The notes under the pieces were generated by a model. That model was not told the DNA's origin. It ran no database searches and saw nothing but the letters and a program-made list of their open reading frames with translations. The position numbers and the translations under genes were made by a program. DNA of 64,000 nt from an uncultured Solirubrobacteraceae bacterium (GTDB lineage: Bacteria; Actinomycetota; Thermoleophilia; Solirubrobacterales; Solirubrobacteraceae): positions 2,334,610-2,398,609 of the forward strand of contig OY970237.1 in assembly GCA_963715385.1 (NCBI GenBank), given 5' to 3'. This document shows, piece after piece, positions 22,156-63,940 of this stretch. The number at the start of each line of letters is the position of its first letter. Position 1 is the first letter of the stretch.

Positions 22156-22161
22156 GGACTT

Positions 22162-33669: not shown

Positions 33670-33689
33670 GATAAGGTTGCTTGATAATT

Positions 33690-33705: not shown

Positions 33706-33741
33706 CCTGACGATTGTAGAGCGAGAACCGGAGGCCGTCAA

Positions 33742-40688: not shown

Positions 40689-40692
40689 GCGT

Positions 40693-42023: not shown

Positions 42024-42300
42024 GAACGCTGCTTGGGACGCTTTAGCGGTGCGATCAGACGCACCGCGCTGGCGCCTACCGCTCTCGCTCCCATCACGGT
42101 CGGAGTTCGAATAACGGCCTCACACCCGGCCAAAACGGGGAGATCGGGACGACTTGCGAACCCCGTCCTAGACCGCTTTCTTGAGCATCTCATGGAGCCA
42201 GTCGGTCGGCAAGCGCGGCGGCGGGCGGCAGAGGCCATCCGAAGCCGTGGCCGGAGCGATTTGGCTCGACCAACGAGTAGACGCGCATAAGCTGGTAGCG

Positions 42301-43518: not shown

Positions 43519-43521
43519 GAC

Positions 43522-44079: not shown

Positions 44080-44132
44080 GCTAGCGTTCAACGCCGGAAC
44101 TGATTGCCGGTCGCTGCTGCCAGACTGCGCCA

Positions 44133-44897: not shown

Positions 44898-45051
44898 CCC
44901 TCGCCCACGTCGCACAATCGGCGATGCGCGACGTCGCACGGCGCGTACTCGTCATCGACCGCATCAAACGGTATCGCTGAGTCAATAAGCCGGAAATCTC
45001 TGGCAGATCACCGCAGACCGTCAAGCTGCTATGGCCCAATAGCGGACGGCA

Positions 45052-46050: not shown

Positions 46051-46065
46051 ACCTTATTTGTAAGG

Positions 46066-46503
46066 CTAAGACGAGTAGTCCTCGTCAACCACCTTGTCGT
46101 TCTTGATCTTCTCGTGCTTGTCTTCCCCACTAAGCACTAGTCGAAATACCACAAACGTCGCATCCTCGTCAGCGACATTTGCGAAGGTATGCACGCTACG
46201 CCCAACGCGGACGACATCACCACTGCCGATCGTCTCGCACTTAGTTGTTCCCCTATTCCGCCATCTCACCTCCAGCTCACCCTTGAGTACCAAGACCGTC
46301 TCCTCAATAGCTTCATGGTGGTGCCACTGCTGCACCGTACCTGGCGCGATCTCATTGAAGTGAAGCTCGTACTCAGCAAAAATGTAGTAACTAACCTTGG
46401 TGCCTTCACCCTTGTCCACATCAATTGCCTGGGTTCGCCTCACGATCTCCACTGAGTCGCCTGGGTCTTTTACGGCACTATCGTATCTCGGGATGTCACT
46501 CAT
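46066..46503 (-). CDS. Cupin domain protein
   Basis: WHHHEAIEETVLVLKGEL and VHTFAN motifs. Confidence 0.85.
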   Translation of the reverse strand: MSDIPRYDSAVKDPGDSVEIVRRTQAIDVDKGEGTKVSYYIFAEYELHFNEIAPGTVQQWHHHEAIEETVLVLKGELEVRWRNRGTTKCETIGSGDVVRVGRSVHTFANVADEDATFVVFRLVLSGEDKHEKIKNDKVVDEDYSS

Positions 46504-47636: not shown

Positions 47637-48187
47637 TATTCGCTCCGTTCGGGGTCGTGCCTTAGTTTAAGTGATATCGGGGCAAAAAGCTCCGCCCAGT
47701 CGCGGGGATCGTCACCAGAGGTGTCCACGCAGCCCAGAGTGTCCAAATGCAGATTGAGCGGCATCATTGCGCGCAGATCGGTCGCTACTGCCTCACGTTC
47801 GGCTTCGTCAAGGGAGCCATAGATCGCGCTTAGATGCGGAAGATAGGGACGCGCTTGCTTGTGGCGCAAGGCGCGCCCACAGGCAGATCGGACGGCAAGT
47901 AGTGGCGCAGTCGCAGGGCATACGAAGAAGACACATTGGTAATAGGCTGTCGTATGCTCGACCGAATCGACTTGCAGGTCGATCGGCAGCTGGTCACAGG
48001 CGATCTCATCTAGAAGGCGCTCCACGTCGGCGATGTTAGCGGCGTCGCCGTTCCCGATGACGGTGACGTGAGGCGGAAATGGAGGGGTCCCGTGGGCAGC
48101 GGATAGCCGGTTGATGACCGCGGCGAGCTTGTCGGCCTGCTCTGCGCATGGGCGTAGCCATATCGAGAGTGCTCGGCTGGAAGTCAT
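47636..48187 (-). CDS. 2H phosphoesterase / cyclic phosphodiesterase
   Basis: PPHVT and LPHLS motifs; TAATG coupling to radical SAM gene. Confidence 0.85.
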   Translation of the reverse strand: MTSSRALSIWLRPCAEQADKLAAVINRLSAAHGTPPFPPHVTVIGNGDAANIADVERLLDEIACDQLPIDLQVDSVEHTTAYYQCVFFVCPATAPLLAVRSACGRALRHKQARPYLPHLSAIYGSLDEAEREAVATDLRAMMPLNLHLDTLGCVDTSGDDPRDWAELFAPISLKLRHDPERSE

Positions 48188-48224
48188 TCCACGCCTGCAA
48201 ACATATCGAGCTGGCATCGCTCCA

Positions 48225-48821
48225 TCAGATAAGGCCGAGCAAGTGTGCCGCGCCAAGCACTGCGGACACCGCTACTGCGCTGGTCGCGAAGTTTTGAAGT
48301 CCGGATGCGAGCAAGTCGCGCACACTGGGACCAGTTGTTTCCATCGCCCGGTGTTTGGTAAGGGGGTTGCGAGCCGGCGCATTTTTCGGTTCCGGGTCGA
48401 CGATCCCAAACCATACGCTCCCAAGGAGGAGTCCGCGCTCGATACGAACAGCCTTCTTCCCAGCATTGAAGACTGTGGGCTTGATCTGCCCCTCGAAGTT
48501 CGGATCGACCTTGAGGTTAGCGACGAGCAGTCCGTTGGCCGCCTGCGATGTCTTCGAACATACCTGCCCGAACACATTCTTGGGCGTTTTGATTTTCTCG
48601 TCAACCTCAATGCGCACGCACTCGCCGGGCTTTAGTGCGAAGCCCTTCTCTCCTATATCCTGCTCGCCGCCGAAATCGACCTCGTAGACCTCTCCGACAT
48701 GGAGATCGAGCGCGACACGCTCTGGCCCCTTCAACATCTTCTTGATCAGATCAACGTCCTCGTCCCGAGCACTTTCGACAGTGATTTCAGCTTTTCCCCA
48801 GCACTCAATAGGAATGATCAC
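48225..48821 (-). CDS. dCTP deaminase/dUTPase-fold protein with C-terminal hydrophobic helix
   Basis: DLHVG, LKPGE, SKTS, VDPNFEG, VFNAG; tail FATSAVAVSAVLGAAHLLGLI. Confidence 0.7.
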   Translation of the reverse strand: MIIPIECWGKAEITVESARDEDVDLIKKMLKGPERVALDLHVGEVYEVDFGGEQDIGEKGFALKPGECVRIEVDEKIKTPKNVFGQVCSKTSQAANGLLVANLKVDPNFEGQIKPTVFNAGKKAVRIERGLLLGSVWFGIVDPEPKNAPARNPLTKHRAMETTGPSVRDLLASGLQNFATSAVAVSAVLGAAHLLGLI

Positions 48822-49056
48822 TCACGGCCCCTCCAGTTAGCCTCTGCCGAGCTTGCCGCCTGACGCCTAGCAGATCTGAATGTCGGAATAATAGCCGCTG
48901 ATGATCTTCAGCGCATCCCTGGAGTCGCCCTGTCAGTCTCGGTGCTCGCCTGTCGCACAAGTGCCATTCGGCGGCGGGCATTCTCCCGTAGGCCGTAGCG
49001 CAGTATTGCTGCGTGGTGGCCTACGGGATCAGCCGTATGCGCTTCGGGTTCGATGG

Positions 49057-49317
49057 TTAGACGACGCGCCCGCCTTGTAGCTCGGTGTAGCGGATCGCTT
49101 GCCGAGTGGCGAAGATGAATCCGTCGACCGTTCGGTGGATGAGCCCCGCTCGGCGCAGAGACCCCAGGGCGTCGTCTGCGTCGATTGAATCCCCGACCTC
49201 GCGGCCTATCTCGTCGGGGGACCAAATGGATTGCTCGGAGGGCTCGACTAGGAGGTGCAGGACTGCTAGCTCAACGGCGTCGAAGCGTTCGGCAGGTGTA
49301 CGCTCGTCATCGGACAT
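49057..49317 (-). CDS. Small winged-helix-like protein, paralog A
   Basis: GREVGDSIDADDAL..L...GLIHR...FIFATR.AI. Confidence 0.65.
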   Translation of the reverse strand: MSDDERTPAERFDAVELAVLHLLVEPSEQSIWSPDEIGREVGDSIDADDALGSLRRAGLIHRTVDGFIFATRQAIRYTELQGGRVV

Positions 49318-49466
49318 GGGAGATCATTCCTCTCTTGTCTCGGGCCTCGGCGCGGTGTCAGCCGCGTCGAGGCCACTTGGTTTTCGGAGCGCCCGAAGCT
49401 AGGTCTGTGCTGCGTGAGCGGTCAACGTGTGCGGCGGCCGCCGCGGACGGTCACGCTGACCCGCGC

Positions 49467-49718
49467 CTACCAAGTCGCGCCAAAGAGGTCGTGCAGGTGG
49501 ATGGCGGCGCGGGTGGGGAAAACGTAGTCGCCCTGGCGATGGATGAGCCCGACGTCGGAGAGGACGCGCATGGCGTCGAGGGCGACGATCAGGTCGCCGA
49601 CGTGGCGGCCAAGTTGCTCGACCGTGTACCAGTCCTCACCGGCCCACAGGACGAGCATGAGGATTTGCCGTTCAAAGTTCGACGGCACGTCGTCATAGTC
49701 GAGGGCAGTCTTTGTCAT
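49467..49718 (-). CDS. Small winged-helix-like protein, paralog B
   Basis: GRHVGDLIVALDAM..L...GLIHR...YVFPTR.AI. Confidence 0.65.
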   Translation of the reverse strand: MTKTALDYDDVPSNFERQILMLVLWAGEDWYTVEQLGRHVGDLIVALDAMRVLSDVGLIHRQGDYVFPTRAAIHLHDLFGATW

Positions 49719-49786
49719 GGCCCAGGACGGTAGGCCAGCGGGGGACGGCGGAACAAGGTGTGGGACGAGGCGCGGGCCCGCTTCGG

Positions 49787-50146
49787 TCAGCGGGGTTTAC
49801 GACGACCGGCCACCGATGCCTCGATGCGCTCCATGCCGCTACGGATCGCGGCAAGCTCGGAAAGCACGCGCTGCTCGAAGGCACCGCTTCCGGCCTCGCG
49901 GCCAGCGATCCGCATCAGCTCGAGGCGGTCGGCGCTAAGCACCTCGGCCAGCCGCTCTATGACCTCATCGCCGGGCGGCCCGTAATCGCCGACCTCGACC
50001 CTCGACAAGTGACCAGGGCTCATCGGTAGCTGTTCGGCTACCTCGCGTTGAGTCGGCTTCTTCTCGCGGCGTAGGGAGCGGATGCGTTCGCCGAAGGCGA
50101 CGGCACGCTCGGCTTGGGATTTGGGGCGTCGTGCAGGCGCCACCAA
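49787..50146 (-). CDS. XRE family HTH regulator (5' end possibly altered)
   Basis: FGERIRSLRRE...TQREVAE....SPGHLSRVE.G. Confidence 0.8.
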   Translation of the reverse strand: MVAPARRPKSQAERAVAFGERIRSLRREKKPTQREVAEQLPMSPGHLSRVEVGDYGPPGDEVIERLAEVLSADRLELMRIAGREAGSGAFEQRVLSELAAIRSGMERIEASVAGRRKPR

Positions 50147-50403
50147 GCGCCGCTACAACCAAGCGTTCTTCCAGAAGCTCTACGTGACGCCCGAATGGGA
50201 TGAGCAGCAAGGCCAACTGGTCGCCCGGATCACCAAGGCCGAGCTGACCGAGCCCTATGCGCTGCTTCTGGCCGACGACTTGGCCGAGGGCGTACTGGCC
50301 GAGGCTGAGGCCATCACGGCCCAGGCCAACGCCGAAAGGGCTTCAGACAGCCAGATTGGCTATCCGAAGCCCTTTGCTGTCGCGTGTTCATACTTCGTGA
50401 AGA
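50134..50403 (+). pseudogene. C-terminal remnant of a large serine recombinase
   Basis: KRRYNQAFFQKLYV tail motif pointing at the tRNA 3' end; no catalytic domain; family call from recall. Confidence 0.55.
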
Positions 50404-50495
50404 TGGCGGAGAGGGCGGGATTCGAACCCGCGATGGAGTTTGACCCCCATACTCGCTTAGCAGGCGAGTGCCTTCAGCCACTCGGCCACCTCTCC
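50404..50495 (-). tRNA. tRNA-Ser(GCT), CCA encoded
   Basis: GGAGAGG acceptor, CTCGC-CTGCTAA-GCGAG anticodon arm, long variable arm, GGTTCGAATCC. Confidence 0.97.
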
Positions 50496-50565
50496 CGGGA
50501 ATAGGGGTGCCAGTGTAGAGACTGACAAGCCCTGCCGAGAGACCACGTAGCATCTGAGGCCCTCC

Positions 50566-50655
50566 GGAAGGGTGGCAGAGCGGTTGAATGCGGCGGTCTT
50601 GAAAACCGTTAGGCGGGCAACACCCGTCTCGGGGGTTCGAATCCCCCCCCTTCCG
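50566..50655 (+). tRNA. tRNA-Ser(TGA), CCA not encoded
   Basis: GGAAGGG/CCCTTCC acceptor, GCGGT-CTTGAAA-ACCGT anticodon arm, GGTTCGAATCC. Confidence 0.97.
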
Positions 50656-50807
50656 TCCCGCGTCTAGTGGCCCCTCATGGCGACATCGCGTGTCGCATGT
50701 CCGGGTAGAGCTTGATCTGACGATCGTCTGCGAGCCCGGCCCAGGGTGGCGAGTCATCGGGTCGATTCCGGAGGTCGCTGGGGTCTCAGCCGGGGCCGCG
50801 GGTTGCG

Positions 50808-51254
50808 TCAGAGATGGTGGGGCGCTGCTGCAAGCAGCGGCGTAATGCGAGTTACGAGTGTGATTGCCTCATTGGTAGCCGCGGCTGCCTTGATGGTCGT
50901 CCAGAGCTTGCGGACCTTCTGCCCATCGGGTGCCTGGGCCTGGGTCTCGTCAGCGAGTCGCGCCGCGGCCCGCTCGGCCTCGGTCGCGCCCTCGTTGTCG
51001 AAGACCTGCCGAAGCTGAGCGAGCAGCTCCGCGAGCTGCGGCAAGTCTCCGCCCAGCGCGCGGGCGCCTATGGCAACCGAGGTGCTGTCGGCTCGCGCGC
51101 CGGCACCAATCGCCGTGCCGCCCTTGTTGCTGAGCACGTTGCCGTTTGGGTCGGCCAGCGTATAGATCGTGTTCCCGTCACCCATCGAGGGAACCGGCCC
51201 TGCGCCCACGTACGTATTCTCGTTGCCGATCCTCGGGGCATCGCCGCTCGTCAT
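50808..51254 (-). CDS. Hypothetical protein with AIGxxAxA repeats and helical C-terminus
   Basis: TAIGAGARADSTSVAIGARA; amphipathic helices. Confidence 0.55.
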   Translation of the reverse strand: MTSGDAPRIGNENTYVGAGPVPSMGDGNTIYTLADPNGNVLSNKGGTAIGAGARADSTSVAIGARALGGDLPQLAELLAQLRQVFDNEGATEAERAAARLADETQAQAPDGQKVRKLWTTIKAAAATNEAITLVTRITPLLAAAPHHL

Positions 51255-51372
51255 TTCCCTGCCATGATATGTGACGAGGCGGCGAGGCTCATCGGATTGC
51301 CGCCAAGCACAGCCTCGCGTGTAGCGCGTAACACACTGGCGTGATGTCGGGCCAGCGATTCGTGTGCGGCGA

Positions 51373-52002
51373 CTAACGGCCACAGCACTTCTTGTACTTC
51401 CGACCCGAGCCGCACGGACAGGGGGCATTGCGCCCAGGTTTAGTTTCGTGCGTGACCGCTGGTGGATCGTCCTGATGGCTACGGAAGTCTTCAAGGGCTT
51501 GCTCGACCGCTCGCTGTAGCTCGCTATGGACGATCGCGTCGTTTCGCTGGATCGCGTGCTCAACAGTCGCACTAGTCGCCGAGTGATCGCGGGATTCGGC
51601 TACCAGCTGCGCGGTGAGTATCACGAGCGCTTGGAGCAGCACCCATATAAAGGCTTGCCTTGCGCTGATCGGAACGCGCTCAAGAAGGCGGCCGAGTACC
51701 GGGGCGTCCTCTGCGATGCGTGCGGCTGCCTCCTCCATCGGGAGCGTGCCGTCATTTGCTTGCCGGGCAATCCCTGCGAACCGTTGAAGCAGCTCCCGAT
51801 CAAGACGAGTGGAACGCAGAGCCTCGAAAACGCCATCGCGAACGTTGAACTCGCCCTCGACGATACGGGCTGCTCCACCGCATCTTGGACAGGACTCGAC
51901 GTTGTTTTCGAGGACCAGGTGCCGCACGTAGCCCTCTACGACGATTCCACGCCCCTCGAATGTGTATCCGCATTGAGTGCAATGCGCCGGCAGTCCAACC
52001 AT
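51373..52002 (-). CDS. Zn-ribbon plus SEC-C motif protein
   Basis: CTQC...CPRC; KPGRNAPCPCGSGRKYKKCCG. Confidence 0.8.
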   Translation of the reverse strand: MVGLPAHCTQCGYTFEGRGIVVEGYVRHLVLENNVESCPRCGGAARIVEGEFNVRDGVFEALRSTRLDRELLQRFAGIARQANDGTLPMEEAAARIAEDAPVLGRLLERVPISARQAFIWVLLQALVILTAQLVAESRDHSATSATVEHAIQRNDAIVHSELQRAVEQALEDFRSHQDDPPAVTHETKPGRNAPCPCGSGRKYKKCCGR

Positions 52003-52478: not shown

Positions 52479-53489
52479 CTACAGCAGCTCCAGATCTCCC
52501 AGTGAGAGTGCCCACGAGGCCGCCAGCGTCGGGTCGGGAACGATGCCCTCGCGCAGCGGATTCGCGGTCAGAGCAGCGCCGCGAAGCGACTCGAGAAAGC
52601 CGCATCGCGCAGCCTGGCGGCGCGATGGAAAGGCACATGCGACGCCATCCACCGGGGCGGCCCTCCTGACACCGCGCAGGAGCCGGCGGACGATCCGCCG
52701 TTCGCCGCGCTCGGCCAACAGCTCACAGACCTGGGAGACCCAGAAGCGCCCGTGGCGGCGGACCCGGAAGATCGCCAGCCCGGAGCAATGCCCATCCTCG
52801 CCGGCCACGAGCGCCCGGTACTCCTCGAAGCGCCCGTAGCGCCAGCGCAGGTAGTCGAGATCCTTGGCCGTCACGTAGCGATCGCCGGGCTCGCCCGTAC
52901 GTTCGAGCAGGCGCGACAGGCCGGCCCCGTCATCCAGCACCGTGGCGGCGGTGTCGGCTTCGACGGAGATGCGCTCGGGGGTTCTCGATCCGCGTGCGGA
53001 CGCCCGCCGAACCGTCCCCCACGGCGTACCGCCGAGCGCCACGAAGCGCGGAACGCCGTTGACTTTGCGCCGGCCGGACTTGAGAACGCCTCCGCGGCTG
53101 TACTCGTTGGGGTTGTTCCAGCCGAAGGAGGTGTCCGGCGGGAAGTGCTCGCGGGCCGCGTTGATCAGCGCCATCGAGGCTCCGCGACGCCGGACGGCGG
53201 GGTCTACGGCCAGGTCGACGCCGCGAATCGTCTTTCGCAACTGGCCGTCGACCTGCAAGCGCCACGTCAGCAACCCGAGAAAGCCGATGATCGTGCACTC
53301 GGCCTCCGCGAGCAGCCCGATCGATGGCCCGAACGGACTGGCCATGTGCTTCCAGTGGAAGAACTCGGCCGCCGTGACCCCGTCCACGTGCCGCGGCCAT
53401 TCGCCGAACGCCGCCTGCAGCAGCTCGAGCACACGCGGCTCGTCCGCGGCCTCGAACACCCGAACGCTGACGGCGCCGCCGTGAGCCAT
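52479..53489 (-). CDS. GNAT family acyltransferase (tandem GNAT-like)
   Basis: FFHWKH..SPFG, GVDLAVDP..RRRG, FGWNNPN, YLRWRY. Confidence 0.8.
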   Translation of the reverse strand: MAHGGAVSVRVFEAADEPRVLELLQAAFGEWPRHVDGVTAAEFFHWKHMASPFGPSIGLLAEAECTIIGFLGLLTWRLQVDGQLRKTIRGVDLAVDPAVRRRGASMALINAAREHFPPDTSFGWNNPNEYSRGGVLKSGRRKVNGVPRFVALGGTPWGTVRRASARGSRTPERISVEADTAATVLDDGAGLSRLLERTGEPGDRYVTAKDLDYLRWRYGRFEEYRALVAGEDGHCSGLAIFRVRRHGRFWVSQVCELLAERGERRIVRRLLRGVRRAAPVDGVACAFPSRRQAARCGFLESLRGAALTANPLREGIVPDPTLAASWALSLGDLELL

Positions 53490-53513: not shown

Positions 53514-55385
53514 TTATGACACCTTGACCGTGCGGGCCGTGGCGATCACCGCGCCGGCCGCATTCAGCGCCTGTACCGTCATGTATGGGCCACCAACTCC
53601 CGCCGGCAGCGCGATCGCGGTCTCGAAACCGGTGCGCCCAAGTTCTGCCACCGGCTTCAGACTGCCCGGAGCCGTGCCCGACAGCACCCGCCAGCCGCTC
53701 ACGAGCGTGGCGCCGTTCCAACTGGCGTAGACGGCGCCGGCGCCGTGCGCGCCCGCTTGAAAGGCGAACGCCGGCGCATCGGCGGGCGTGCCGGTCCACT
53801 CGAAGCGCAAGTCGCGGTAGGACTGTGTATGCGCCGGGAAGTGTGCGTCGAACAGCAGCGCTCCAGCGGAGTTGAACTCCGAGAAGCCCGGAACCTGGCC
53901 CCAGCCCGCGAACCAGTCGCCGTTTGCCAGCGCCTGAAAATTGCCTTGGCTGTCGGCCAGCAGCGGGGGCGGATGGTCGATCTGGCTGAGAAGCATCGCC
54001 GTCTTGTGCTGCGCGTCGAGTCCCAGCACGATCCCACGCGATTGGCTGTGCACCGCCGGCGAGGCGCCGTTGTCGAACAAGCTGATCGACCCGTCGGGGA
54101 GCTGGCGCGGGTCGTGCTGCCAGGCGGTTCGTGTGCCCGGCCCCATCTTGAAGCTGCTGCGCTTTCCTCCCAACCGCCACAGGATCTGGCCGCTGCGGGC
54201 GTCCAGGTCGTAGGTGGCCCAGGTGTTGCGAGCGGAGATCAGTAGGCTGCCATCCCCATCGACGTTGATCGAGTTGATGTGGAAGAAGTCGAACGGCGCG
54301 GGCGCCGAAGTCCTGGTGGCCTTCGCGTAGGACTCGCTCAGCGCGACGTGGTCGAGGCTCGACCACTGGAACATGACCAGCCCGGTCTTTACGTCGATCT
54401 CCTGCAGCAGTCCGTCGGTGATGCCGTCGTAGCGGGAGCCGCCCGCGGAGGAGAGGTCGCAGAGGATCGGCTGATAGGCGGTGATCAGCGCGGTCCCCTG
54501 CGGGGTCAGCTGAAGCTCGTGCAGGTCGGCCTGCACGCCGTTGCCCGCTTTCACGTGTGCGATCTCCTGATACGCCTGATCGGCGATCACTCCTTCGCCC
54601 AAGCCGTAGCCGTGGACCGAGATGTCCCCCTGCCACCAACTCAGAACCGGCTTGCCCAGGTACTCCTGCACGCGCAAGTTGGTCGCGAAGGTGTTCGCCG
54701 GCAGGGGCTTGAACCACAGCAGCCCGCCGCTCTGATCGAGAATCATCGGGCCGGCTTGCCCCGGCCCGGTGTACGGCGCGAGGAACTCATCGCCGGGCGC
54801 GACGGCGGGCGAGGAGGCGGTCACCGTCACGACCGGCGGGCGCAGGTCCGCCCGCGAGCGAAACGCCTGGACGTCGCTGGGTCGGCCGGGGTGGGTCGTC
54901 TCCGGCGTGGAGCTGATCAGGTCCCGATCGGCGATCGCGAACCGATCGAGGAGCGTATGCGTGGAGGCACCCTCGCGCAGCTGGGCACGAACCGTGACCC
55001 GCTCTCCTTCCGCGAACGGCCGCGAGGGCAGGAAGCTCGCACCGTTGCCCTGCGAATACGGAGCGAGACGCCCACCATGGGCGCCACTCTGCGAGCCGCT
55101 TACGCGGAGATCGCTCAATTGCCGTGCGGGGACCCCGAGAAAGCTAATCTGAGTCCGTGCTGAGGCATCGCGGCTGCCGGGCAGCGGAGACATCGTCACC
55201 GTGCCCGCCTGCACCGCGGAGGTGTTCAACGTGGCCGGCGTGCAGGCCGGAGCGCGTGTCGCCGCGAAGGCGTCCGCGGCGGATAGCCCAATCCCCAGCG
55301 CGACCGGCAGCCCTGGTAGGAGTAGAGCACGGACGATGAGTAAGAACCCCGAGCAGGACAGACGAGTCGATCGCCGCACGTTCAT
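53514..55385 (-). CDS. Secreted arylsulfotransferase (ASST) family protein 1
   Basis: DLHEL, DFFHINSI, SARNT, WQHDPR, SQGN; start uncertain. Confidence 0.8.
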   Translation of the reverse strand: MNVRRSTRLSCSGFLLIVRALLLPGLPVALGIGLSAADAFAATRAPACTPATLNTSAVQAGTVTMSPLPGSRDASARTQISFLGVPARQLSDLRVSGSQSGAHGGRLAPYSQGNGASFLPSRPFAEGERVTVRAQLREGASTHTLLDRFAIADRDLISSTPETTHPGRPSDVQAFRSRADLRPPVVTVTASSPAVAPGDEFLAPYTGPGQAGPMILDQSGGLLWFKPLPANTFATNLRVQEYLGKPVLSWWQGDISVHGYGLGEGVIADQAYQEIAHVKAGNGVQADLHELQLTPQGTALITAYQPILCDLSSAGGSRYDGITDGLLQEIDVKTGLVMFQWSSLDHVALSESYAKATRTSAPAPFDFFHINSINVDGDGSLLISARNTWATYDLDARSGQILWRLGGKRSSFKMGPGTRTAWQHDPRQLPDGSISLFDNGASPAVHSQSRGIVLGLDAQHKTAMLLSQIDHPPPLLADSQGNFQALANGDWFAGWGQVPGFSEFNSAGALLFDAHFPAHTQSYRDLRFEWTGTPADAPAFAFQAGAHGAGAVYASWNGATLVSGWRVLSGTAPGSLKPVAELGRTGFETAIALPAGVGGPYMTVQALNAAGAVIATARTVKVS

Positions 55386-57153
55386 CAAGAACGGGCTGAT
55401 CACCGGCGGCGCGCTGGCGGGCGCCGGGCTGGGGATCACGCGGGCCGTGGATGCCACGCAGGGATCGCAGCTCACCGGGGGCGCCCCGGCGCAGAAGCCG
55501 GCTGTCTCACGCGGGCGCACACGCCGCCCGAACATCCTCGTGATCGTGGTCGATCAGATGCGCTTTCCACAGTGGCTCCCGACGGGGATCAACGGGGCGG
55601 CGCTGCCGCCCAACCTCCAGCGCCTGCGCAATGGCGGCGTCTCCTTCGCCCGGCATTACACGGCCGCCAACGACTGTACCCCGGCGCGCTCGACACTTCT
55701 GACCGGCCTCTACACACATCAGACCGGCTGCATGATCACGGGCGGCAGCAACCTGGACCCCGGCTTCCCGACCTGGGGAACGATGTTGCGCGAGCACGGC
55801 TATCGCACCCGCTGGTATGGCAAGTGGCATCTCACCCATCGCGACAACCACTGGGGCGCGAAATTCGGGCCTCGCGCGCTCGCGCGCTACGGCTTTGCGG
55901 GAGGCACCTATCCCTCCCCCAACGGCGCACCCGGCCAGGGCTGGCGCCGAGACCCGTACATCGCTCGGCAGTTCGAGCATTGGATCGCACGGGAGAGCGG
56001 CGCCAAGCCGTGGTGCACGACGGTCTCCTTCGTCAACCCCCACGACATCGCCTGGTGGTACGCGTGGAGCGATCGCGTGCCGGGCGAGGCGCGCGCCGAG
56101 AGCGTGGCCGGGGGCCTTCCGCCCAACTTCGAGACGCCCGAAGTGATGATCGAGCGCAACAAGCCGCGACTGCAGCGCTCGCTGCAGGACACCGCGGCGG
56201 CCGCCTTTGGCCCGGTCCCGTTCACCGGTCTTGAAGCAGCCCCCCGGTGGGCTGAATTCCTCGACCTGTACGCGAAGCTCCAACTGGAGGTCGACCGCCA
56301 CATCGGCCAGGTGCTGCGGGCGCTGCACGACCGGCCCGAGGTCGCCGCCAACACGGTGATCCTGTTCACCTCCGACCACGGTGAGTACGGCGGCTCGCAT
56401 GGCCTGCGGGGCAAGGGCGCCGCCGCCTACGAGGAGGCGATCCGGGTGCCGCTGATCGTCAAGGACCCGCGCGGAGTGCTGACCCGCGCGCCGGAGCAGG
56501 AGCGCGTGCAGTTGAGCTCCAGCGTGGACGTCGCGCCGTTGCTGCTGACGATCGCCACCGGATCGAACCAGTGGCGCACCGAAGAGCACTACTCGCATCT
56601 CGCCGGGCGTGCGGACCTCGCCGCGATCCTCGCCGATCCGGGCGCACCAGGCCGTCCGTACGTGCTGCACGCGACCGATGAGACCGTGACCGAGTTTGCG
56701 ATCGAGCCCTACGCTGCCAACGCGCCCCGTCATGTCGTCGCGATGCGCACGCCCACGGCAAAGTTCGCCAGCTACTGCGACTGGCCCAGCACGGGAATCG
56801 AACCGCTGTCGCAGGGCGCCGAACACGAGCTATATGACTACAGCACGGACAGCGGCCGCCTGGAGCTGCACAACAGCGCGGGCGAGAGCAGGCTCGAGGA
56901 TGGGCTGCGCTCCGCGTTCGAGCAGGCGTTCGCCGAGGAGCTTCGGCGCCCGCTGCCCCCGCGCCTGACTGAAGCGCACGCGCGTGGATTTGCCGACTAC
57001 TTCTCCACCGCCAGGCACGCCGAGGACAACGCCGCGGCCGCACGTCAGCGCCGCTCCGAACAGGAAACCGAGGGCCTGGAAGAAGGAGGGATCACCCCGC
57101 AGGAGCCACTCCTGCAACATCTCAGAGCCGCTTCACAGGCGAAGCGCCGATGA
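55336..57153 (+). CDS. Tat-exported formylglycine-type sulfatase
   Basis: DRRTFIK Tat motif; VVDQ, CTPAR (CxPxR), GKWH, SDHG. Confidence 0.92.
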   Translation: MSKNPEQDRRVDRRTFIKNGLITGGALAGAGLGITRAVDATQGSQLTGGAPAQKPAVSRGRTRRPNILVIVVDQMRFPQWLPTGINGAALPPNLQRLRNGGVSFARHYTAANDCTPARSTLLTGLYTHQTGCMITGGSNLDPGFPTWGTMLREHGYRTRWYGKWHLTHRDNHWGAKFGPRALARYGFAGGTYPSPNGAPGQGWRRDPYIARQFEHWIARESGAKPWCTTVSFVNPHDIAWWYAWSDRVPGEARAESVAGGLPPNFETPEVMIERNKPRLQRSLQDTAAAAFGPVPFTGLEAAPRWAEFLDLYAKLQLEVDRHIGQVLRALHDRPEVAANTVILFTSDHGEYGGSHGLRGKGAAAYEEAIRVPLIVKDPRGVLTRAPEQERVQLSSSVDVAPLLLTIATGSNQWRTEEHYSHLAGRADLAAILADPGAPGRPYVLHATDETVTEFAIEPYAANAPRHVVAMRTPTAKFASYCDWPSTGIEPLSQGAEHELYDYSTDSGRLELHNSAGESRLEDGLRSAFEQAFAEELRRPLPPRLTEAHARGFADYFSTARHAEDNAAAARQRRSEQETEGLEEGGITPQEPLLQHLRAASQAKRR

Positions 57154-59002
57154 CCGTGCCGGCGGCATCGAGCGCCTGCGCCTGGACATAGGCGCCGGCC
57201 GCCTCCGACGGCAGCGCCATCGCCGTCTCAAAGCCGCTCCTGGCCGAGCTGCAGACGGGTGCCAGCTTCGCGGGCGACGGCCCCGCAAGCACGCGCCAGG
57301 AGGCGACATCCGTCGCGCCGTTCCAGCTCGCGTATGCGACCGCGCCGCCGTGCGCGGCGGGCGGCTTCGCCAGGGCCAGCGCCGGGGAATCGGCCGGCCG
57401 GGCGCTCCACGCGAGCCGGTAGGCTCGATAGGACTCATAGGCGGCCGGCATGTGCGCGTCGAGGAGCAGTTGGCCGGACGGGCTGAATTCAGAGATGTAG
57501 GGGACCTCGCCCCACCCCACCATCCAGGCGCCGTTGGGCAGGGCCTGCAGGTTTCCCTGGCTGCCGGCGACCAGCGCCTTCGACGGGTGCGTGTCCGCAC
57601 GCACGAGCGTCGCCGTCTTGCGCTGTGGATCGAGCCTCACGGCGATCGCCCGCGACTCAGGATGAATCGCCGGTGTCGCGCCGTTGTCGAAGAAGGTGAT
57701 CGTTCCGTCCGGCTGCCGGCGTGCGTCGTGCTGCCAGGCCGTGCGCGTGCCCGCCCCCATCTTGAAGTTGCTGTGCTTGCCGCCTAGCTGCCAGCGCACC
57801 CGGCCCGTACGCGCGTCGAGGTCGTAGGCGGCCCACGTGTTGCGCGCATCGACGAGCAAGTCGCCGTTCGGCTGCACGTCGATCGAGTTGATGTGGAAGT
57901 AGTCGAACGGCGTCTTGCGGCTCGCGTGCCGGCCGGAGGCGTAGGAGCGCGCGAGGGCGACGTGATCGAGGCTGTGCCACTCGAACATCACAAGGCCCGT
58001 CTTGAGGTCGATCTCCTGCAGCAGCGTGTCCGCCACGGCCGCATTGCGCGGGCCCCCGACGGCGGTCAGATCGCAGTTGATCCCGTTGAACACCGTGATC
58101 AGCCCGGTGCCCCGCGGGGTGATCTGGAATTCGTGCAGATCGGGCTGATAGCCGTTGCCGGCGCGCACGACCGCGAGCTGGCGGTATGAACTGTCGAGGA
58201 TCACCTCGCCCGCCTTGCTGGAGCCGCCGGCGCTCAGCGGGTCCTGCCACCAGGTGAGCACGGGCCTGCCTTCATACTGCTGAACCCTGAAGTCCGCCGC
58301 GCGCGTGCCCTGCGGTGAGAGCGGCTTGAACCACACCATCGCGCCGTCTTCATCGAGGATCATCGGGCCGTACTGCCCCGGACCCGAGTACGGGGCCACG
58401 AACAGATCGCCCGGAGCGGTGCCCGCGGTGTGAGTCGTCACGGTCACCGTGGGCGGCTTCAGGTCTGGGCGGGAGTGGAAGCTCTGGTAGTAGGGAGGGT
58501 GTGGCGGTGGGAACGGGCTGCCGCCCGCTTCTCCGGCGCGGTCGCGCACGGCGACCGTGAAGCTCCAAGAGAACGGGATCGTCGTGCCGTCCGCTCGCAG
58601 CTCGGCGTGAACGCTCACGAGCTCGCCTTCCGTGAACGGCTTTGATGGCAGGAAGCTCGCGCCGTCGCCCTGCGAGTAGGCGAGCAAGCGACCGGAATGG
58701 CCGCCGCTGCGCGAGCCCGTGACGGTGACGTGCGAGAGCGCCGTCGCGGGCACGCCGAGCATGCTGATCTGGGTCAGCGCGGAGGCGTCCCGCGTCTGCG
58801 GTCCCGGAGAGACCGTCACCCGCGAGCCGGCCAGCGCGGCGGAGACGTTCAGGCGCGGGGGCGTGCAGCGCGGGTTCGCGGGGATACCCGCGGCGCGAGC
58901 GCTCGAGGAGCGCCACGAGTACCTCCCGAGCAGGCCCACGACACCCCCCAGCACCGCAAGGCCGGTGAGCAGCGCGCACACGCGCGAGCGGCGTCTGCTC
59001 AC
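57122..59002 (-). CDS. Secreted/anchored ASST family protein 2
   Basis: DLHEF, DYFHINSI, DARNT, WQHDAR, SQGN; GTGA coupling to upstream gene. Confidence 0.82.
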   Translation of the reverse strand: MSRRRSRVCALLTGLAVLGGVVGLLGRYSWRSSSARAAGIPANPRCTPPRLNVSAALAGSRVTVSPGPQTRDASALTQISMLGVPATALSHVTVTGSRSGGHSGRLLAYSQGDGASFLPSKPFTEGELVSVHAELRADGTTIPFSWSFTVAVRDRAGEAGGSPFPPPHPPYYQSFHSRPDLKPPTVTVTTHTAGTAPGDLFVAPYSGPGQYGPMILDEDGAMVWFKPLSPQGTRAADFRVQQYEGRPVLTWWQDPLSAGGSSKAGEVILDSSYRQLAVVRAGNGYQPDLHEFQITPRGTGLITVFNGINCDLTAVGGPRNAAVADTLLQEIDLKTGLVMFEWHSLDHVALARSYASGRHASRKTPFDYFHINSIDVQPNGDLLVDARNTWAAYDLDARTGRVRWQLGGKHSNFKMGAGTRTAWQHDARRQPDGTITFFDNGATPAIHPESRAIAVRLDPQRKTATLVRADTHPSKALVAGSQGNLQALPNGAWMVGWGEVPYISEFSPSGQLLLDAHMPAAYESYRAYRLAWSARPADSPALALAKPPAAHGGAVAYASWNGATDVASWRVLAGPSPAKLAPVCSSARSGFETAMALPSEAAGAYVQAQALDAAGTVIGASPVKRL

Positions 59003-60807
59003 TCCTTGACCGTGGACGAGGTGCCGATCACGGCGCCCGAGCCGTCGAGCGCCTGCACAGCCAGATACGGACCTGTCGTGTGCGCCGTGATCGTCGTCTG
59101 AAAGCCCGCGGCCGGGGCGCTCGTGACGGGCGCCAGCGTCGAGCTGGGGGAGCTTCCCTCCAGCACCCGCCAGGAAGCGACATCGGTGGCGCCGTTCCAG
59201 CTCACAGAGACCGCGACCGCGACCGCTCCCGCGGAGCGCACCGACACGGACGGCCGCCCCGCCGGCTGCCCACTCCACGGCGAGAGATAGGTCCGGAAGT
59301 TCTGGACGTCCTTGCCGAGCGTGGCGTCCAGGAGCACGTGTCCGGATGCATCGAACTCCGTGAAGTTCGGCAGCCCGCCGTAGCCGAGCAGCCAGTTGCC
59401 ACCGGGCAGGCTGAGGGTGTTGCCCTGGCTCGAGGCGAGCAGCCTTTTGGACGGGTTCACGAGCTGCTTGACGAGGCTGACCGTGTGATTGGAGGTGTCC
59501 GGGCGCAGCAGGATCCCGCGCGACTGCCTCTCCTTGGGCGGCGCCGAGCCGTTGTCGAACATCGAGATCAGCCCGCCCGGCTGGAACTCGGAATCGTGCT
59601 GCCAGTAGAAGCGCGTGCCGGCGCCCTGCTTGAAGCTGCTGCGCTTGCCGCCGAGACGCCAGTGGATGGCGCCGCTGTGCAGGTCGACGTCATACAGGGC
59701 CCAGGTGTTGCGCGCTGAAAGCAGTAGATCGTCCGAGGGGCCGGGATCGGCGGTGTTCATGTGTACGTAATCCCACGGGTAGCCGTTGCTGCGCACGGGG
59801 TTGTAGGACTCGCTCAGAGGGATGTGACCGAGCGAGTGCCACTCCCACATGACCAGACCGGTCTTGATGTCGATCTGCTGGATCACCGAGTCGGTGAGGA
59901 TGCCGTCGGCGGAGCCGTGCACGCTCGACAGGTTCATGTGGATCGGGTCGAACACGTCGATCCACGCGGTCCCCTCCGGAGTGAGCCGGATCTCGTGCAG
60001 ATCGGCGTGGTAGCCGTTGCCCGCCCTGACCCGCGCGATGCGCCTGTAGGAACTGTCGTAGATGACGTTTTCACCCTCGCCGAAGCCAACCTGGATGATC
60101 CGCCCCTGCCACCAGGTGAGCACCGGTTTGCCCTGATAGGACTGCACCTGGAAGTTCGTCGCGTCGACCCCGGCGGGGAGCGGGTGAAACCACACGAGGT
60201 TGCCCTTCTGATCGACGATCATCGGGCCTGAGGCGCCCTTTCCCTGGTAGGGGGCCAGGAAGAGCTCCCCGGGCGTCGCGCCCGGCTTCGCGGGCGTCGT
60301 GATCTTCACCGAGGAGGGAGTCAGCGCGGGCGCCGAGCTGTAGTGCTGCACCGCCTTGGAGTCGCCGGGATTCCTCGGAAACTGCTTCTGGCTGACCGTC
60401 GCCTGATGGGCGACGGTGAAGCTCGTGCTCGCCTCCTGGGACCCGACTTGGGCATGAACGGTCACACGCTCGCCGGCGACGAACGGGTGCGAGGGCAGAA
60501 AGCTCTCACCCGTTCCCGTCGAGTAGGCCCGCAGGGTTCCCGAGTGCGTGCCGCTGTGGGAGCCGACCACGTGCACGCCGGAGATCTGCGTGCCGGCTCC
60601 GCCAAGGAAGCTGATCTGCGTGCTCGGCGAGGCGTCTGGAGTGCCCGGCAGCGGCGAGACCGTCACCGAGCTGGCCGCCACGGTCGCGCTCGGAGTGCCG
60701 TGGCCGAGCGCAGCCGATGTGGCAGGCGAGGCGCCGCCGCACGCGCAGATGCCGGCGACCGTTGTGAGCGCAGCGAGTAGGACCACAGCTGGACGAGCGG
60801 CTCTCAT
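58999..60807 (-). CDS. ASST family protein 3 (probable lipoprotein)
   Basis: GICACGG lipobox-like; DLHEI, DYVHMNT, SARNT, WQHDSE, SQGN. Confidence 0.82.
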   Translation of the reverse strand: MRAARPAVVLLAALTTVAGICACGGASPATSAALGHGTPSATVAASSVTVSPLPGTPDASPSTQISFLGGAGTQISGVHVVGSHSGTHSGTLRAYSTGTGESFLPSHPFVAGERVTVHAQVGSQEASTSFTVAHQATVSQKQFPRNPGDSKAVQHYSSAPALTPSSVKITTPAKPGATPGELFLAPYQGKGASGPMIVDQKGNLVWFHPLPAGVDATNFQVQSYQGKPVLTWWQGRIIQVGFGEGENVIYDSSYRRIARVRAGNGYHADLHEIRLTPEGTAWIDVFDPIHMNLSSVHGSADGILTDSVIQQIDIKTGLVMWEWHSLGHIPLSESYNPVRSNGYPWDYVHMNTADPGPSDDLLLSARNTWALYDVDLHSGAIHWRLGGKRSSFKQGAGTRFYWQHDSEFQPGGLISMFDNGSAPPKERQSRGILLRPDTSNHTVSLVKQLVNPSKRLLASSQGNTLSLPGGNWLLGYGGLPNFTEFDASGHVLLDATLGKDVQNFRTYLSPWSGQPAGRPSVSVRSAGAVAVAVSVSWNGATDVASWRVLEGSSPSSTLAPVTSAPAAGFQTTITAHTTGPYLAVQALDGSGAVIGTSSTVKE

Positions 60808-60970
60808 CTGGGGGGCTACGCGCGCCCGATGTGGTGGGTCATATGGCTCGAACCCAGCGGGCGGCGCGGGCATGGCGGACTCGTCATCGCCGGTGATCGT
60901 AGCGGGAGCGCAAGCGGCCGGAGCCGGTCGCACGGAGCGTGCGCGGCGCGAGAAACGCCGATACGGGAAC

Positions 60971-63940
60971 CTAGGAGCCGAGCGTGAACGGCCGGGAAGC
61001 TCCGATCACCCGCCCGTCGCCGCTGAGTGCCTGGACCTTGAAGCTGTGATTGCCCTGAGCGACGGGGACCGCCGTCTCAAAGCCGGACTTGGCGCTCCTC
61101 GCCACAACCGCCAGCCGGCTGGGACTGGGTCCAGCCAGCACCCTCCAGGACGCGACCTCGGTGGCCCCGTTCCAGCTCGCGTACACGGTTGTCGTGCCAC
61201 CCGCCGCACGCGCGACGCCGACCGGCGAGGAGAGTGGCAGGCCGACCCATCGCTCGACGGTCGCTCTGTAGCTGACGTTCGGGCCCGGGAACTCGCCTTC
61301 GAACAGCAGCCTGCCCGAGCGGTCGTACTCGGAGAAGTACGGTTCCGAGCCCCAACCGACGAACACGTCGCCGCCCGGCTGAGGTTGCGTGTCGCCCATG
61401 TATTCCGAGCGAAAGCCGCCTTTGTTGCCGTACTGCGCGGCCAGCGTCGCCCTGCGCGTCTGCTGATCGAGCGAGAGCAGGAGCCCGCGCGAAGGCCCGG
61501 GCGGATCGACGGAGGTACCGCCGCCGGTCAACTGGCAGCAGTGGTCGTCGAACAGGCTGATCGTCGAGTCACCCTGCAACGCTACGTCGTGCTGCCATTC
61601 GAAGCCGGCGCCCGGGCCGAACTTGAAGCTCGAGTCCCTGCCGCCGAGCGTCCACCGGATCCTGCCGCTGTCGATGTCCACCAGGTAGGCGGCCCACGTG
61701 TCGCGCATCGAGACGAGGAACTTGCCCTCGCCCGTCAGCTGGATCGAGTTGACGTGGTAGGCGTCCCAGGGAAACCCGTTGGTCGGCAGCGTTGCCTGGG
61801 ACTGGCTCAACGGGATGTGGTCGAGCGCGTCCCAGTTGCGCTCCAGTCGGCCCGTCCTCAGGTCGTACTCCTGCACGGCCGAATCGATCAACGCGCCGTT
61901 GTAGGCGCCGCCGTACCTGGACAGGTCCTTGGGCACGTTCTTGTTCGCGGTCACCCACGCGTGCTCTCCATCGATCACGAGCTCGTGCAGTGTCAGCACC
62001 CAGCCATCCTTGGCTCTCAGCCGCGCAACCGGCTTGTAGTGCTGGTCGACGACGACGTACTCGCCGCTTTCGGTCGAGCCCGTGTTCGTGACGACGCCCT
62101 GCCACCAGGCGAGCACCGGCTTGCCGTGATAGCTCTGCAGGCTGAGGTTGGCGGCGACGACTCGTTCGGGCACCGGCTGGAACCAGACAGGCTGCAGGTC
62201 GCGGTCGAGGATCAGCGGCCCGCTCTGACCGACGATCGGCGGTTCGTTGAGGTCGTAGAAGTTCGCCGTGAAGATGTAGCCGGGCGCGAGCCGCCGGGCG
62301 GGTGCCCGCTTGACGCTGCGGATCTGCGGCGGGTGAAGCGCCGGCGCGGTGACGAAGGTGTAGGCGTCCTTCGTTGTGTATTGCCCGATCGGAGCGCCCC
62401 GCGAGCCCGCGAACGCGGCAGTGAGCCCGACGAACACCGCCAGCACGAGCGCGATCGCCCCGGCAAAACGCCGCGGCGCCGCTCCTAGCGCGCTCTCCGG
62501 TTTCGGTACGGCCACGAACGTGATGACAGCGGCCAGACCGGCGAGGCAGGCGGCGATCAGGTAGGCGAGGGCGAAGCCGTGGGTGAGCGCCGCCGCGACC
62601 TGTTCGCCTGAGCCGATCAGGTTGGTCGAGCGTTGCGTCGCGAACGTGATCAGCAGTGCCAGGCCCAAGCCGCCGCCGACCTGGCGGGAGGTGTTGACGA
62701 GCCCCGACGCGAGGCCGGCCTGACCCTCCTTCGCTCCGTGAGTGGCGGCGATCGTCGAGGGGACGATCGACATCGCGATCCCCGCCGCCGTCAGCACGCC
62801 GGGAATGACGACGTAGACGATCGGACTGCCGCTCGGCCCGATCCGCGTGAACAGCAGCAGCCCCGCGGTCAGCATGAGCAGCCCCCCTCCGAGGACCGTG
62901 CGCACGCCGAACTGGCTCACCAGCTTGCCGGCGCGAGAGGCGATCAGCATGATCGTCAACGTCATCGGCAGGAAGATGAGGCCGGTGTGCAGCGGCGAGA
63001 GACCGAGCACCTGCTGCAGGTACAGCGAGCTCACGAACCACATCGGGAAGAGCGCCGCGCTGAACAGCAGGACGATGTTGTTGGCGACCTTCAGCGGCTT
63101 GGTCAGCTCCTTGAAGGGGATCAGCGGCGCCGAGGCCACGCGCGTCTCGATCAGGCCGAACACCCCGAGCAGCGCGGCGCCGATCGCGATCGGGCCGAGC
63201 GCGGCGAGCGTGCCCCAGCCCTTCAGGCCCGCTTCGACGACCCCGTAGACGAGCACCATCTGACCGAGCGTCAGCGTCAACGCCCCGGCAAGGTCGAAGG
63301 GAGGCGCATCTGGGCCCTTGCGGCGCTCCGCGACGACGGCGTAAGCCACGAGTGCGGCGGCGATCGCGATCGGGGGATTGATCAGCAGGACCCAACGCCA
63401 GCTGAGCACTTCGGTGATGATCCCGCCGAGCAGCACTCCGGCCGCGCCGCCGAGTCCGTTCATCGCCGCCCAGATTCCGATCGCCCGGTGTCGCTTGGGG
63501 CCCGCCGGAAACGATGCGGTGATGATCGCTAGCGAGGTCGCGGCCATCAGAGCGCCGGCGAGACCCTGCACGCCGCGAGCGGCGACGAGCGTCACCTCGT
63601 TGGGCGCGAGGCCGCCGGCCAGCGAGGCCAGCCCGAACAGGGCCAGCCCGGCGACGAGCGTGCGGCGCTGGCCGAAGTGGTCGGCCGCGCGACCGCCGAG
63701 CATCAAAAAGCCGGCGAACGTGATCGCGTACGCATCGACGACCCATTGCAGATCCGGCGAGGTGAAGCCGAGATCCGACTGGATCGACGGCAGCGCGACG
63801 TTGACGATGCTCAAATCGAGAATCACCATGAACTGCGCCACGCAGCACACGACCAACAGCCACGCCGAACCCGACCCCTCCCTGCTCTCGGCCGGAGGGC
63901 TCTCGATCACTCCCGGACTGCTCGTCGCCTCGACGCTCAT
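60971..63940 (-). CDS. DHA2 MFS transporter fused to a C-terminal ASST domain (989 aa)
   Basis: FMVILDLSIVNVALP, GGRAADHFGQRR; extra TM FAGAIALVLAVFVGLTAAFA; TLHEL, DAYHVNSI, SMRDT, WQHDV; single open frame. Confidence 0.85.
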   Translation of the reverse strand: MSVEATSSPGVIESPPAESREGSGSAWLLVVCCVAQFMVILDLSIVNVALPSIQSDLGFTSPDLQWVVDAYAITFAGFLMLGGRAADHFGQRRTLVAGLALFGLASLAGGLAPNEVTLVAARGVQGLAGALMAATSLAIITASFPAGPKRHRAIGIWAAMNGLGGAAGVLLGGIITEVLSWRWVLLINPPIAIAAALVAYAVVAERRKGPDAPPFDLAGALTLTLGQMVLVYGVVEAGLKGWGTLAALGPIAIGAALLGVFGLIETRVASAPLIPFKELTKPLKVANNIVLLFSAALFPMWFVSSLYLQQVLGLSPLHTGLIFLPMTLTIMLIASRAGKLVSQFGVRTVLGGGLLMLTAGLLLFTRIGPSGSPIVYVVIPGVLTAAGIAMSIVPSTIAATHGAKEGQAGLASGLVNTSRQVGGGLGLALLITFATQRSTNLIGSGEQVAAALTHGFALAYLIAACLAGLAAVITFVAVPKPESALGAAPRRFAGAIALVLAVFVGLTAAFAGSRGAPIGQYTTKDAYTFVTAPALHPPQIRSVKRAPARRLAPGYIFTANFYDLNEPPIVGQSGPLILDRDLQPVWFQPVPERVVAANLSLQSYHGKPVLAWWQGVVTNTGSTESGEYVVVDQHYKPVARLRAKDGWVLTLHELVIDGEHAWVTANKNVPKDLSRYGGAYNGALIDSAVQEYDLRTGRLERNWDALDHIPLSQSQATLPTNGFPWDAYHVNSIQLTGEGKFLVSMRDTWAAYLVDIDSGRIRWTLGGRDSSFKFGPGAGFEWQHDVALQGDSTISLFDDHCCQLTGGGTSVDPPGPSRGLLLSLDQQTRRATLAAQYGNKGGFRSEYMGDTQPQPGGDVFVGWGSEPYFSEYDRSGRLLFEGEFPGPNVSYRATVERWVGLPLSSPVGVARAAGGTTTVYASWNGATEVASWRVLAGPSPSRLAVVARSAKSGFETAVPVAQGNHSFKVQALSGDGRVIGASRPFTLGS

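Follow-up and report, generated by a model that had tools for sequence, protein, structure and literature searches.

The natural substrates and physiological roles of the aryl sulfotransferases (ASSTs) that work independently of 3'-phosphoadenosine 5'-phosphosulfate (PAPS) are largely unknown (PMC13426309). A 2026 review describes the E. coli ASST as a periplasmic enzyme whose active site consists of His252, His356, Asn358, Arg374 and His436 (EcAST numbering), the last of these being the nucleophile that is transiently sulfated, and notes that Cpz4-type enzymes take small aryl sulfates, such as p-nitrophenyl sulfate (pNPS) and 4-methylumbelliferyl sulfate (MUS), as donors rather than PAPS, with Cpz4 itself preferring a sugar hydroxyl as acceptor (PMC13426309). 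In the 64,000-nucleotide stretch of DNA that was analyzed here, hereafter the window (an uncultured Solirubrobacteraceae bacterium, GenBank assembly GCA_963715385.1, contig OY970237.1, positions 2,334,610 to 2,398,609 of the forward strand), an ASST domain is encoded as the C-terminal part of a transporter: a single gene on the minus strand (60971..63940) specifies a DHA2-type member of the major facilitator superfamily (MFS) that continues through a 15th transmembrane helix (TM15) into the enzyme. DHA2 pumps are recognized by the signature motifs D2 in TM1, A in loop 2-3, B in TM4 and C (GxxxGPxxGG) in TM5. No report of this architecture was found in the literature on PF14269 and on fusions of MFS proteins with arylsulfotransferases, which agrees with the statement in the initial annotation that no characterized example was known.

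The fusion was confirmed as genuine, selected and kept in a soil lineage of uncultured Solirubrobacteraceae (Actinomycetota), and that it is maintained follows from its conservation across at least 80 genome loci and not from the presence of TM15 itself. A search with the whole protein recovered more than 120 protein clusters at 77-87% identity and 983-1082 aa in length, all with both PF07690 and PF14269; all of the named clusters were labelled Solirubrobacteraceae, and the fusion homologues are annotated in public databases merely as 'MFS transporter' or 'EmrB/QacA subfamily drug resistance transporter'. In addition, one genome per GTDB species was scanned with a 301-residue query reaching from TM12 to the first propeller blades, which gave 517 relatives, and the best 80 loci were examined. 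These came from many different studies and were nearly all metagenome-assembled genomes of uncultured Solirubrobacteraceae or Solirubrobacterales, one being labelled just 'Actinobacteria bacterium'. Residues 1-301 of the junction query were matched in a single frame in 80/80 of these loci, and since the more than 120 homologous proteins also hold both domains, the homologues are not split, an outcome that the initial annotation had left to be checked. A single tblastn high-scoring segment pair spanned the whole gene in 70 of the 80 loci; among the remaining ten, five were cut by contig ends, one ended a few residues before the C-terminus and four were frameshifted. The frameshifted copies (L006, L025, L055 and L075), none of which is broken at the junction, may represent long-read assembly errors or pseudogenes.

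An alignment of 121 fusion proteins was used for the residue counts given below. The junction region (residues 480-530) is of equal length in 118 of them, and the MFS half is the best-conserved region, with a mean identity of 85% among 120 homologues. Pairwise Nei-Gojobori comparisons of 67 genes gave omega values of 0.22 for the MFS domain, 0.40 for the loop and TM15, 0.29 for the propeller and 0.38 for the C-terminal domain, and both halves of the fusion are thus under purifying selection. In view of these data it is very unlikely that the gene is an artefact in which a lost stop codon, a frameshift or an assembly chimera joined two genes in one genome; we put the probability of such an event close to nil, given that the in-frame junction recurs in so many protein clusters and loci from independent assemblies, that no indels occur at the junction and that selection acts on both sides of it. 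What can be said for an artefact is that no public sequencing run contained more than 9% of the sampled words; no RNA run was listed either. As to the origin of the fusion, the 150 best cluster representatives (50% identity) of the ASST part included just two with an MFS domain, P0121 (full-length) and P0132 (partial), and P0122 has no more than remnants of TM14-TM15. Because of this restriction the fusion looks like a single event in this lineage.

Residue numbers throughout are counted from the GTG codon at 63967, that is, for a protein of 998 aa. The open reading frame (ORF) ends with a TAG at 60971-60973 and has two candidate starts, the ATG at 63940 (989 aa) and the GTG at 63967 (998 aa). 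The ATG is preceded by AGGTGA 11 nt upstream and fits both the coordinates given in the initial annotation and the usual length of the homologues (986-995 aa); the frame, however, is open as far as the end of the window, and the gene call of the source itself is 1071 aa. In this one ORF, Pfam identified MFS_1 at residues 42-435 (E 7e-50; 170.3 bits versus a gathering threshold of 33.4) and Arylsulfotran_2 (PF14269) at residues 611-892 (E 1.9e-40; 139.5 bits versus 27), as well as a weaker match to PF05935 (30.9 bits versus 24.2). The 14 TM helices of the DHA2-type domain occupy residues 34-490 (62498..63868, minus strand, as are all segments of the gene), as judged from Pfam, NCBIfam, hydropathy, AlphaFold2 (AF2) and Foldseek. 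They are followed by the cytoplasmic TM14-TM15 loop with R499-R500 and the 15th helix (residues 488-520; 62408..62506; hydropathy, AF2 and alignment), by a candidate AxA-type signal peptidase I site with a flexible tether (A518-F519-A520 / G521-S522-R523; 62399..62416; conservation and AF2), by a Cpz4-like ASST beta-propeller (residues 527-905; 61253..62389; PF14269, PDB 9KF4, Foldseek, pLDDT mostly >90) and by a C-terminal beta-sandwich (residues 906-998; 60974..61252; sequence and AF2) with the motif SWNGATEVASWRVLAG, a domain that is common to Cpz4 and all of the paralogues described below. The AF2 model of the whole protein had a pLDDT of 81 and a pTM of 0.73, and it agreed with a Kyte-Doolittle scan in placing 14 helices up to residue ~487 and a 15th at ~497-520 (497-519 in the model). 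The passage of a full 14-TM DHA2 transporter, in frame, through an extra helix into an ASST is therefore borne out by the single ORF, the two Pfam domains, hydropathy and AF2.

The enzyme half is very probably a competent PAPS-independent sulfotransferase, because it combines a Cpz4-like fold with invariant active-site residues. Over the whole ASST domain, including the C-terminal beta-sandwich, it matched PDB entries 9KF4 and 9KF6 (phmmer against PDB sequences, E 3.9e-91), and Foldseek with the AF2 model gave a match to 9KF4 with a TMt of 0.92, a root-mean-square deviation of 2.5 A and 38-39% identity. By their Foldseek titles these entries show the caprazamycin sulfotransferase Cpz4 of Streptomyces and an intermediate of its reaction. 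In a protein search the sequence of 9KF4 was found with a 100% match in Streptomyces sp. SID7499 and was 82% identical to an 'aryl sulfotransferase' of Streptomyces sp. SANK 60405, a strain that we take to be the A-90289 producer and an enzyme that is presumably its LipB. A profile built from 35 sequences reached the E. coli ASST 3ELQ (E 5.6e-6), and in this alignment His356, Asn358, Arg374 and His436 of EcAST correspond to H738, N740, R755 and H793, with the pairing of H661 with His252 lying in a weak, non-significant stretch. The codon of His793, in a WQHD motif, is at 61589..61591, and the residues of the sulfate-binding span (61703..61987) are H661 (61985-61987), H738 (61754-61756), N740 (61748-61750) and R755 (61703-61705). 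All five residues are present, so that the motif residues are intact as the initial annotation had stated, and all are invariant (121/121). The preference of Cpz4 for a sugar hydroxyl means that the acceptors of such enzymes are not limited to phenols. Invariance is also seen in two vicinal cysteine pairs (121/121, minus strand): C41-C42 in TM1 (VVCCVAQF, 63842-63847) and C810-C811 in an ASST loop (DHCCQ, 61535-61540) that AF2 modelled with low confidence at 812-818; the latter pair recurs in the standalone relatives that are nearest, and Cpz4 lacks it.

For a protein with 15 helices and its N-terminus inside, lysine and arginine residues number 18 in the loops predicted to be cytoplasmic and 1 in those on the outer side, which fits a 14-helix core with both of its ends in the cytoplasm. 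Two arginines stand directly before TM15, of which R499 is kept in 120/121 and R500 in 114/121 homologues. Signal peptides are present at the N-terminus of the nearest standalone ASSTs (P0124, P0127, P0129 and P0130), and native Cpz4 and the LipB-like protein have them also. Based on the 15-TM topology, the positive-inside counts and the exported relatives, the ASST domain of this monoderm actinobacterium is predicted to be on the outer side of the membrane, and in this respect the proposal that a 15th helix would carry the enzyme to the outer face is supported.

The likely source of this helix is apparent from the sequence that follows it. In the standalone relatives the signal peptide is succeeded by GAYTTKGAYSFVSAPxLHPP (GxYTTKGAYSFVSAPxLHPP as the shared motif) and in the fusion TM15 is succeeded by PIGQYTTKDAYTFVTAPALHPP; because a matching motif follows both, TM15 is the positional equivalent of the ancestral signal peptide. 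It follows that read-through from an MFS gene into a downstream gene for a secreted ASST would yield the right topology at once. The initial annotation had taken the extra helix as an argument for an evolved fusion over a lost stop codon, and this argument does not hold, since TM15 sits where the standalone ASSTs have their signal peptide and a simple read-through would supply it. A Tat-type (twin-arginine translocation) internal signal at TM15 was considered and rejected, as RRFAL is off the SRRxFLK spacing and the nearest standalone relatives are of the Sec type. We regard the fusion as a clean natural case of a signal peptide recruited as an extra TM helix, by which a fused domain would be flipped across the membrane.

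Whether the enzyme stays attached to the transporter depends on the end of TM15, which reads A518-F519-A520 / G521-S522-(H/R)523-G-A-P. Small residues are found at -3/-1 in 120/121 homologues and G521 in 121/121, so that this AxA-type site is conserved better than the core of TM15. The distance of 20 residues from the RR pair to AFA is like that in Cpz4 and the LipB-like protein, whose signal peptides are cleavable, and residues 521-526 are predicted to be disordered or flexible (AF2 pLDDT <50). Export might therefore be followed by release of the enzyme through signal peptidase I. The main rival to a tethered enzyme is accordingly a polyprotein-like precursor, in which TM15 would act as an internal cleavable signal peptide cut by signal peptidase I at A520/G521, giving a free secreted ASST and an MFS protein left with a 15th helix, and in which the fusion would serve co-expression, co-insertion and a fixed stoichiometry. 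Supporting such a precursor are the conservation of the site, its spacing, the flexibility of the segment behind it and its positional homology to the signal-peptide cleavage region of P0124, P0127, P0129 and P0130. Conversely, the hydrophobic stretch F501-A520 is long and has no polar c-region, as would rather be expected of a signal anchor. Small residues at the end of a helix can be kept for packing, and internal cleavage after 14 TM helices is unusual in bacteria. Moreover, two genes would serve for simple release, yet the fusion has been kept in at least 80 loci. Taken together, we judge the precursor to be a possible but unlikely explanation. The proposed location of the enzyme at the mouth of the transporter is thus supported as regards its placement outside, but its permanent stay there is in doubt given the conservation of the AxA site.

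By its NCBIfam matches the N-terminal half belongs among the DHA2/EmrB pumps, with LmrA (219 bits) and TcmA as the best matches; the EmrB-type model TIGR00711 (efflux_EmrB) scored 194.4 bits, which is below its cut-off of 230.2, and the fused MFS is a divergent DHA2-like protein and not a curated TIGR00711 member. In Foldseek the best structures for this half were those of EfpA from M. tuberculosis and M. smegmatis (30% identity, TMt ~0.86), with further matches to QacA, a Rv1410 homologue, EmrB and NorC. Motifs D2 (LDLSIVNVALP), A (GRAADHFGQRR) and B (RGVQG) were found, and motif C reads GAAGVLLGG, with GV for GP, its proline being absent across the fused clade. The strong conservation of the MFS half argues for a working transporter which, judged by its family, would be an exporter. 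The window also encodes a standalone DHA2-type pump at 33688-35283 (plus strand), which shares 36% identity with the fused MFS half; its motif C is canonical (GP), and no ASST domain is attached to it.

The neighborhood of the fusion gene is rich in related enzymes. It includes ASST paralogue 2 (58999..60933, minus strand), of 644 aa, whose N-terminus resembles that of a signal peptide or lipoprotein and which has an additional N-terminal domain of ~100 aa, ASST paralogue 3 (57122..59002, minus strand), with a likely GTG start at 59002 and an N-terminal TM anchor (both identified from the ORF, Pfam and locus comparison), and ASST paralogue 4 (53514..55535, minus strand), a 673-aa ORF. The stop codon of paralogue 2 overlaps the GTG start of paralogue 3 (GTGA, 58999-59002), which suggests that the two are translationally coupled. 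A convergent gene (55336..57153, plus strand) encodes a type I (formylglycine) sulfatase with the twin-arginine signal DRRTFIK and the motif CTPARSTLLTG (CxPxR). At the end of the cluster is a gene for a GNAT-like acetyltransferase (52479..53489, minus strand) that has weak Pfam matches and an annotated counterpart in the corresponding position of L003. For the sequence upstream of the window, the relatives L003, L004 and L005-L084 were consulted, in which a further ASST of 633 aa lies directly upstream of the fusion, past the window end. This upstream ASST and the fusion are the conserved core over the 80 loci; in ~20 genomes they are the sole ASST-cluster gene content within ~9 kb of downstream sequence, and the core is extended by further paralogues and the sulfatase in ~50 loci. 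The sulfatase was found in ~50/80 related loci and, as a family, in 40/60 full-length loci, and the GNAT-like gene was detected by tblastn in just 5/80. All of the cluster products have export signals, from which we infer that the cluster concerns extracytoplasmic sulfate-ester chemistry. A conserved, secreted hypothetical protein of ~230 aa without a Pfam family is encoded divergently from the upstream ASST, outside the window, in L009 (~5688-6400, minus strand) and in 36/60 related loci.

These observations can be brought together in a general model, which we consider probable, in which an exporter is tethered via TM15 to an outside ASST and shares a substrate with it; the direction of transport, the activity of the enzyme, the tethered state and the sharing of a substrate are all points that we infer. 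The N-terminal half would act as a 14-TM proton antiporter of the DHA2 type that exports a small aromatic or amphiphilic molecule, TM15, in origin the signal peptide of a secreted ASST ancestor, would take the chain back across the membrane, and the Cpz4-like propeller would be held on the outer face by a short flexible tether. There it would carry out a PAPS-independent ping-pong reaction in which His793 is first sulfurylated by an aryl-sulfate donor and then hands the sulfuryl group on to a hydroxyl acceptor. A reason for joining the two halves may be that the molecule that is pumped is the acceptor of the enzyme, or is an aryl-sulfate donor made inside the cell. Coupling of transport to sulfuryl transfer, suggested in the initial annotation as sulfation or desulfation of the transported substrate, is plausible. 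In the first case, a phenolic compound that has been expelled would be sulfated and so trapped, unable to diffuse back; in the second, the pump would provide the many ASSTs on the outside with donor, an idea modelled on Cpz4, whose small aryl-sulfate donors are reportedly made in the cytoplasm according to work on caprazamycin. The fusion would in this way form the membrane hub of an extracytoplasmic sulfate-ester cluster, to which most genomes add two or three ASST paralogues and a Tat-exported sulfatase.

Several observations weigh against this model. The score below the TIGR00711 cut-off and the loss of the motif C proline across the fused clade set the MFS half apart from established DHA2 exporters, and the conserved AFA/GS site could mean release of the enzyme rather than tethering. 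No PAPS-dependent sulfotransferase or donor-making gene was seen near the fusion, and a split MFS/ASST pair was not found, the nearest standalone ASSTs P0124 and P0127 having no MFS neighbor. On the contigs of these two (L001/L002) the order of genes is DedA/VTT, DegT/DnrJ/EryC1 aminotransferase, ASST, ASST, a different conserved context that hints at envelope glycoconjugate chemistry.

It is also conceivable that the two halves have no substrate in common, the MFS being an ordinary efflux pump or a mere anchor or scaffold and the ASST acting on environmental aryl sulfates or on envelope molecules that are never pumped. Consistent with this, the other ASSTs of the cluster manage with simple signal or anchor sequences, the nearest standalone ASSTs adjoin the DegT aminotransferase and DedA/VTT genes and not an MFS gene, and the sulfatase and several secreted ASSTs suggest the processing of external sulfate esters. 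However, no part of the protein is more conserved than the MFS half (85% identity, omega 0.22), and this half has kept its transporter motifs, which argues against a mere or degenerate anchor. One helix would be enough for anchoring, and stable fusions usually mark proteins of the same pathway (the general Rosetta-stone principle). We therefore hold the absence of a common substrate to be decidedly improbable.

A more specific form of the tethered, substrate-sharing model, which we regard as rather unlikely, is an activated-sulfate shuttle. Starting from the premise that PAPS cannot leave the cytoplasm, the MFS would export an aryl sulfate made in the cytoplasm, or a recyclable carrier phenol, and the tethered ASST together with four to five secreted or anchored paralogues would use this common donor or acceptor for extracellular or envelope targets. 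The shuttle may also run in reverse, in which case the paralogues would funnel soil sulfate esters onto one carrier, to be hydrolyzed by the Tat-exported sulfatase for the acquisition of sulfur. If the shuttle is true, the fusion would mark the first case of an exporter with a physical link to sulfuryl transfer outside the cytoplasm.

Elsewhere in the window, an island of lower GC content (~42000-52000; 0.56-0.64 versus ~0.69) lies directly beside the ASST cluster and may have been horizontally acquired. It contains a radical SAM gene (46500-47636), a GHMP kinase gene (45052-46050), a gene for a 2'-5' RNA ligase/CPDase-like protein (47636-48256) and several ORFs without a Pfam match. Two large tandem ORFs on the minus strand (27448-29802 and 30063-32231; ~720-785 aa) have C-terminal IPT/TIG domains and an unusually high GC content at the second codon position. 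A full LigD, with phosphoesterase, ligase and primase-polymerase parts, is encoded at the window start (3-2606, plus strand), and this gene, that for an ECF-type sigma factor with DUF6596 (39429-40748) and that for a DtxR/IdeR-like repressor (21361-22164) are ordinary chromosomal context.

Transporter-enzyme fusions and ASSTs are each already known, and what is new here is a predicted exporter that bears an ASST, predicted to be extracytoplasmic, by way of a recruited signal-peptide helix. The fusion bears on the question of how enzymes outside the cytoplasm obtain their sulfuryl donors or substrates, and the covalent link between exporter and enzyme offers a concrete handle on it, in that the molecule that is pumped should be the substrate of the enzyme. 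That ASST paralogues and a sulfatase surround the fusion suggests a way of processing sulfate esters that has yet to be described. The organisms that carry it are abundant, uncultured actinobacteria of soil, a habitat in which ester sulfates account for a major part of the sulfur.

Among described systems, Cpz4 and the LipB-like Streptomyces enzyme, which belong to the biosynthesis of the liponucleoside antibiotics caprazamycin and, presumably, A-90289, are similar to the enzyme half in consisting of a propeller and a C-terminal beta-sandwich without an N-terminal sandwich. Cpz4 also shares its active-site residues with the fusion and has an export signal at its native N-terminus, but it is a standalone secreted protein of ~490 aa encoded in an antibiotic gene cluster. 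The fusion, in contrast, has a 14-TM transporter and TM15 in the position of the signal peptide, has the invariant C810-C811 pair that is absent in Cpz4, and has ASST paralogues and a sulfatase as neighbors, with no biosynthetic genes seen in that neighborhood. EcAST (E. coli CFT073, 3ELQ) is a distant relative (profile E 5.6e-6) that resembles the fusion in its six-bladed propeller, in its aligned active-site residues and in being extracytoplasmic, which for the fusion is a prediction; it differs in its N-terminal beta-sandwich, in being a soluble, DsbL/DsbI-dependent homodimer and in its assignment to PF05935, whereas the window protein is assigned to PF14269. The DHA2 pumps EfpA, QacA, LmrA, TcmA and EmrB have 14 TM helices and motifs A, B and D2 in common with the fused MFS, but none of them has a 15th helix or an extracytoplasmic enzyme domain, and the fusion differs from them by GV for GP in motif C. 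As its scores are below the family-specific NCBIfam cut-offs, the fused MFS is no orthologue of any named pump. Finally, in the LplT-Aas proteins of some bacteria an MFS lysophospholipid transporter is fused to an acyltransferase/acyl-ACP synthetase, so that here too an MFS protein is covalently joined to an enzyme, one that acts on the transported molecule, as we propose for the fusion. In LplT-Aas the enzyme is cytoplasmic and acts after import, whereas that of the fusion would stand outside an exporter by virtue of an added helix and would catalyze sulfuryl transfer.

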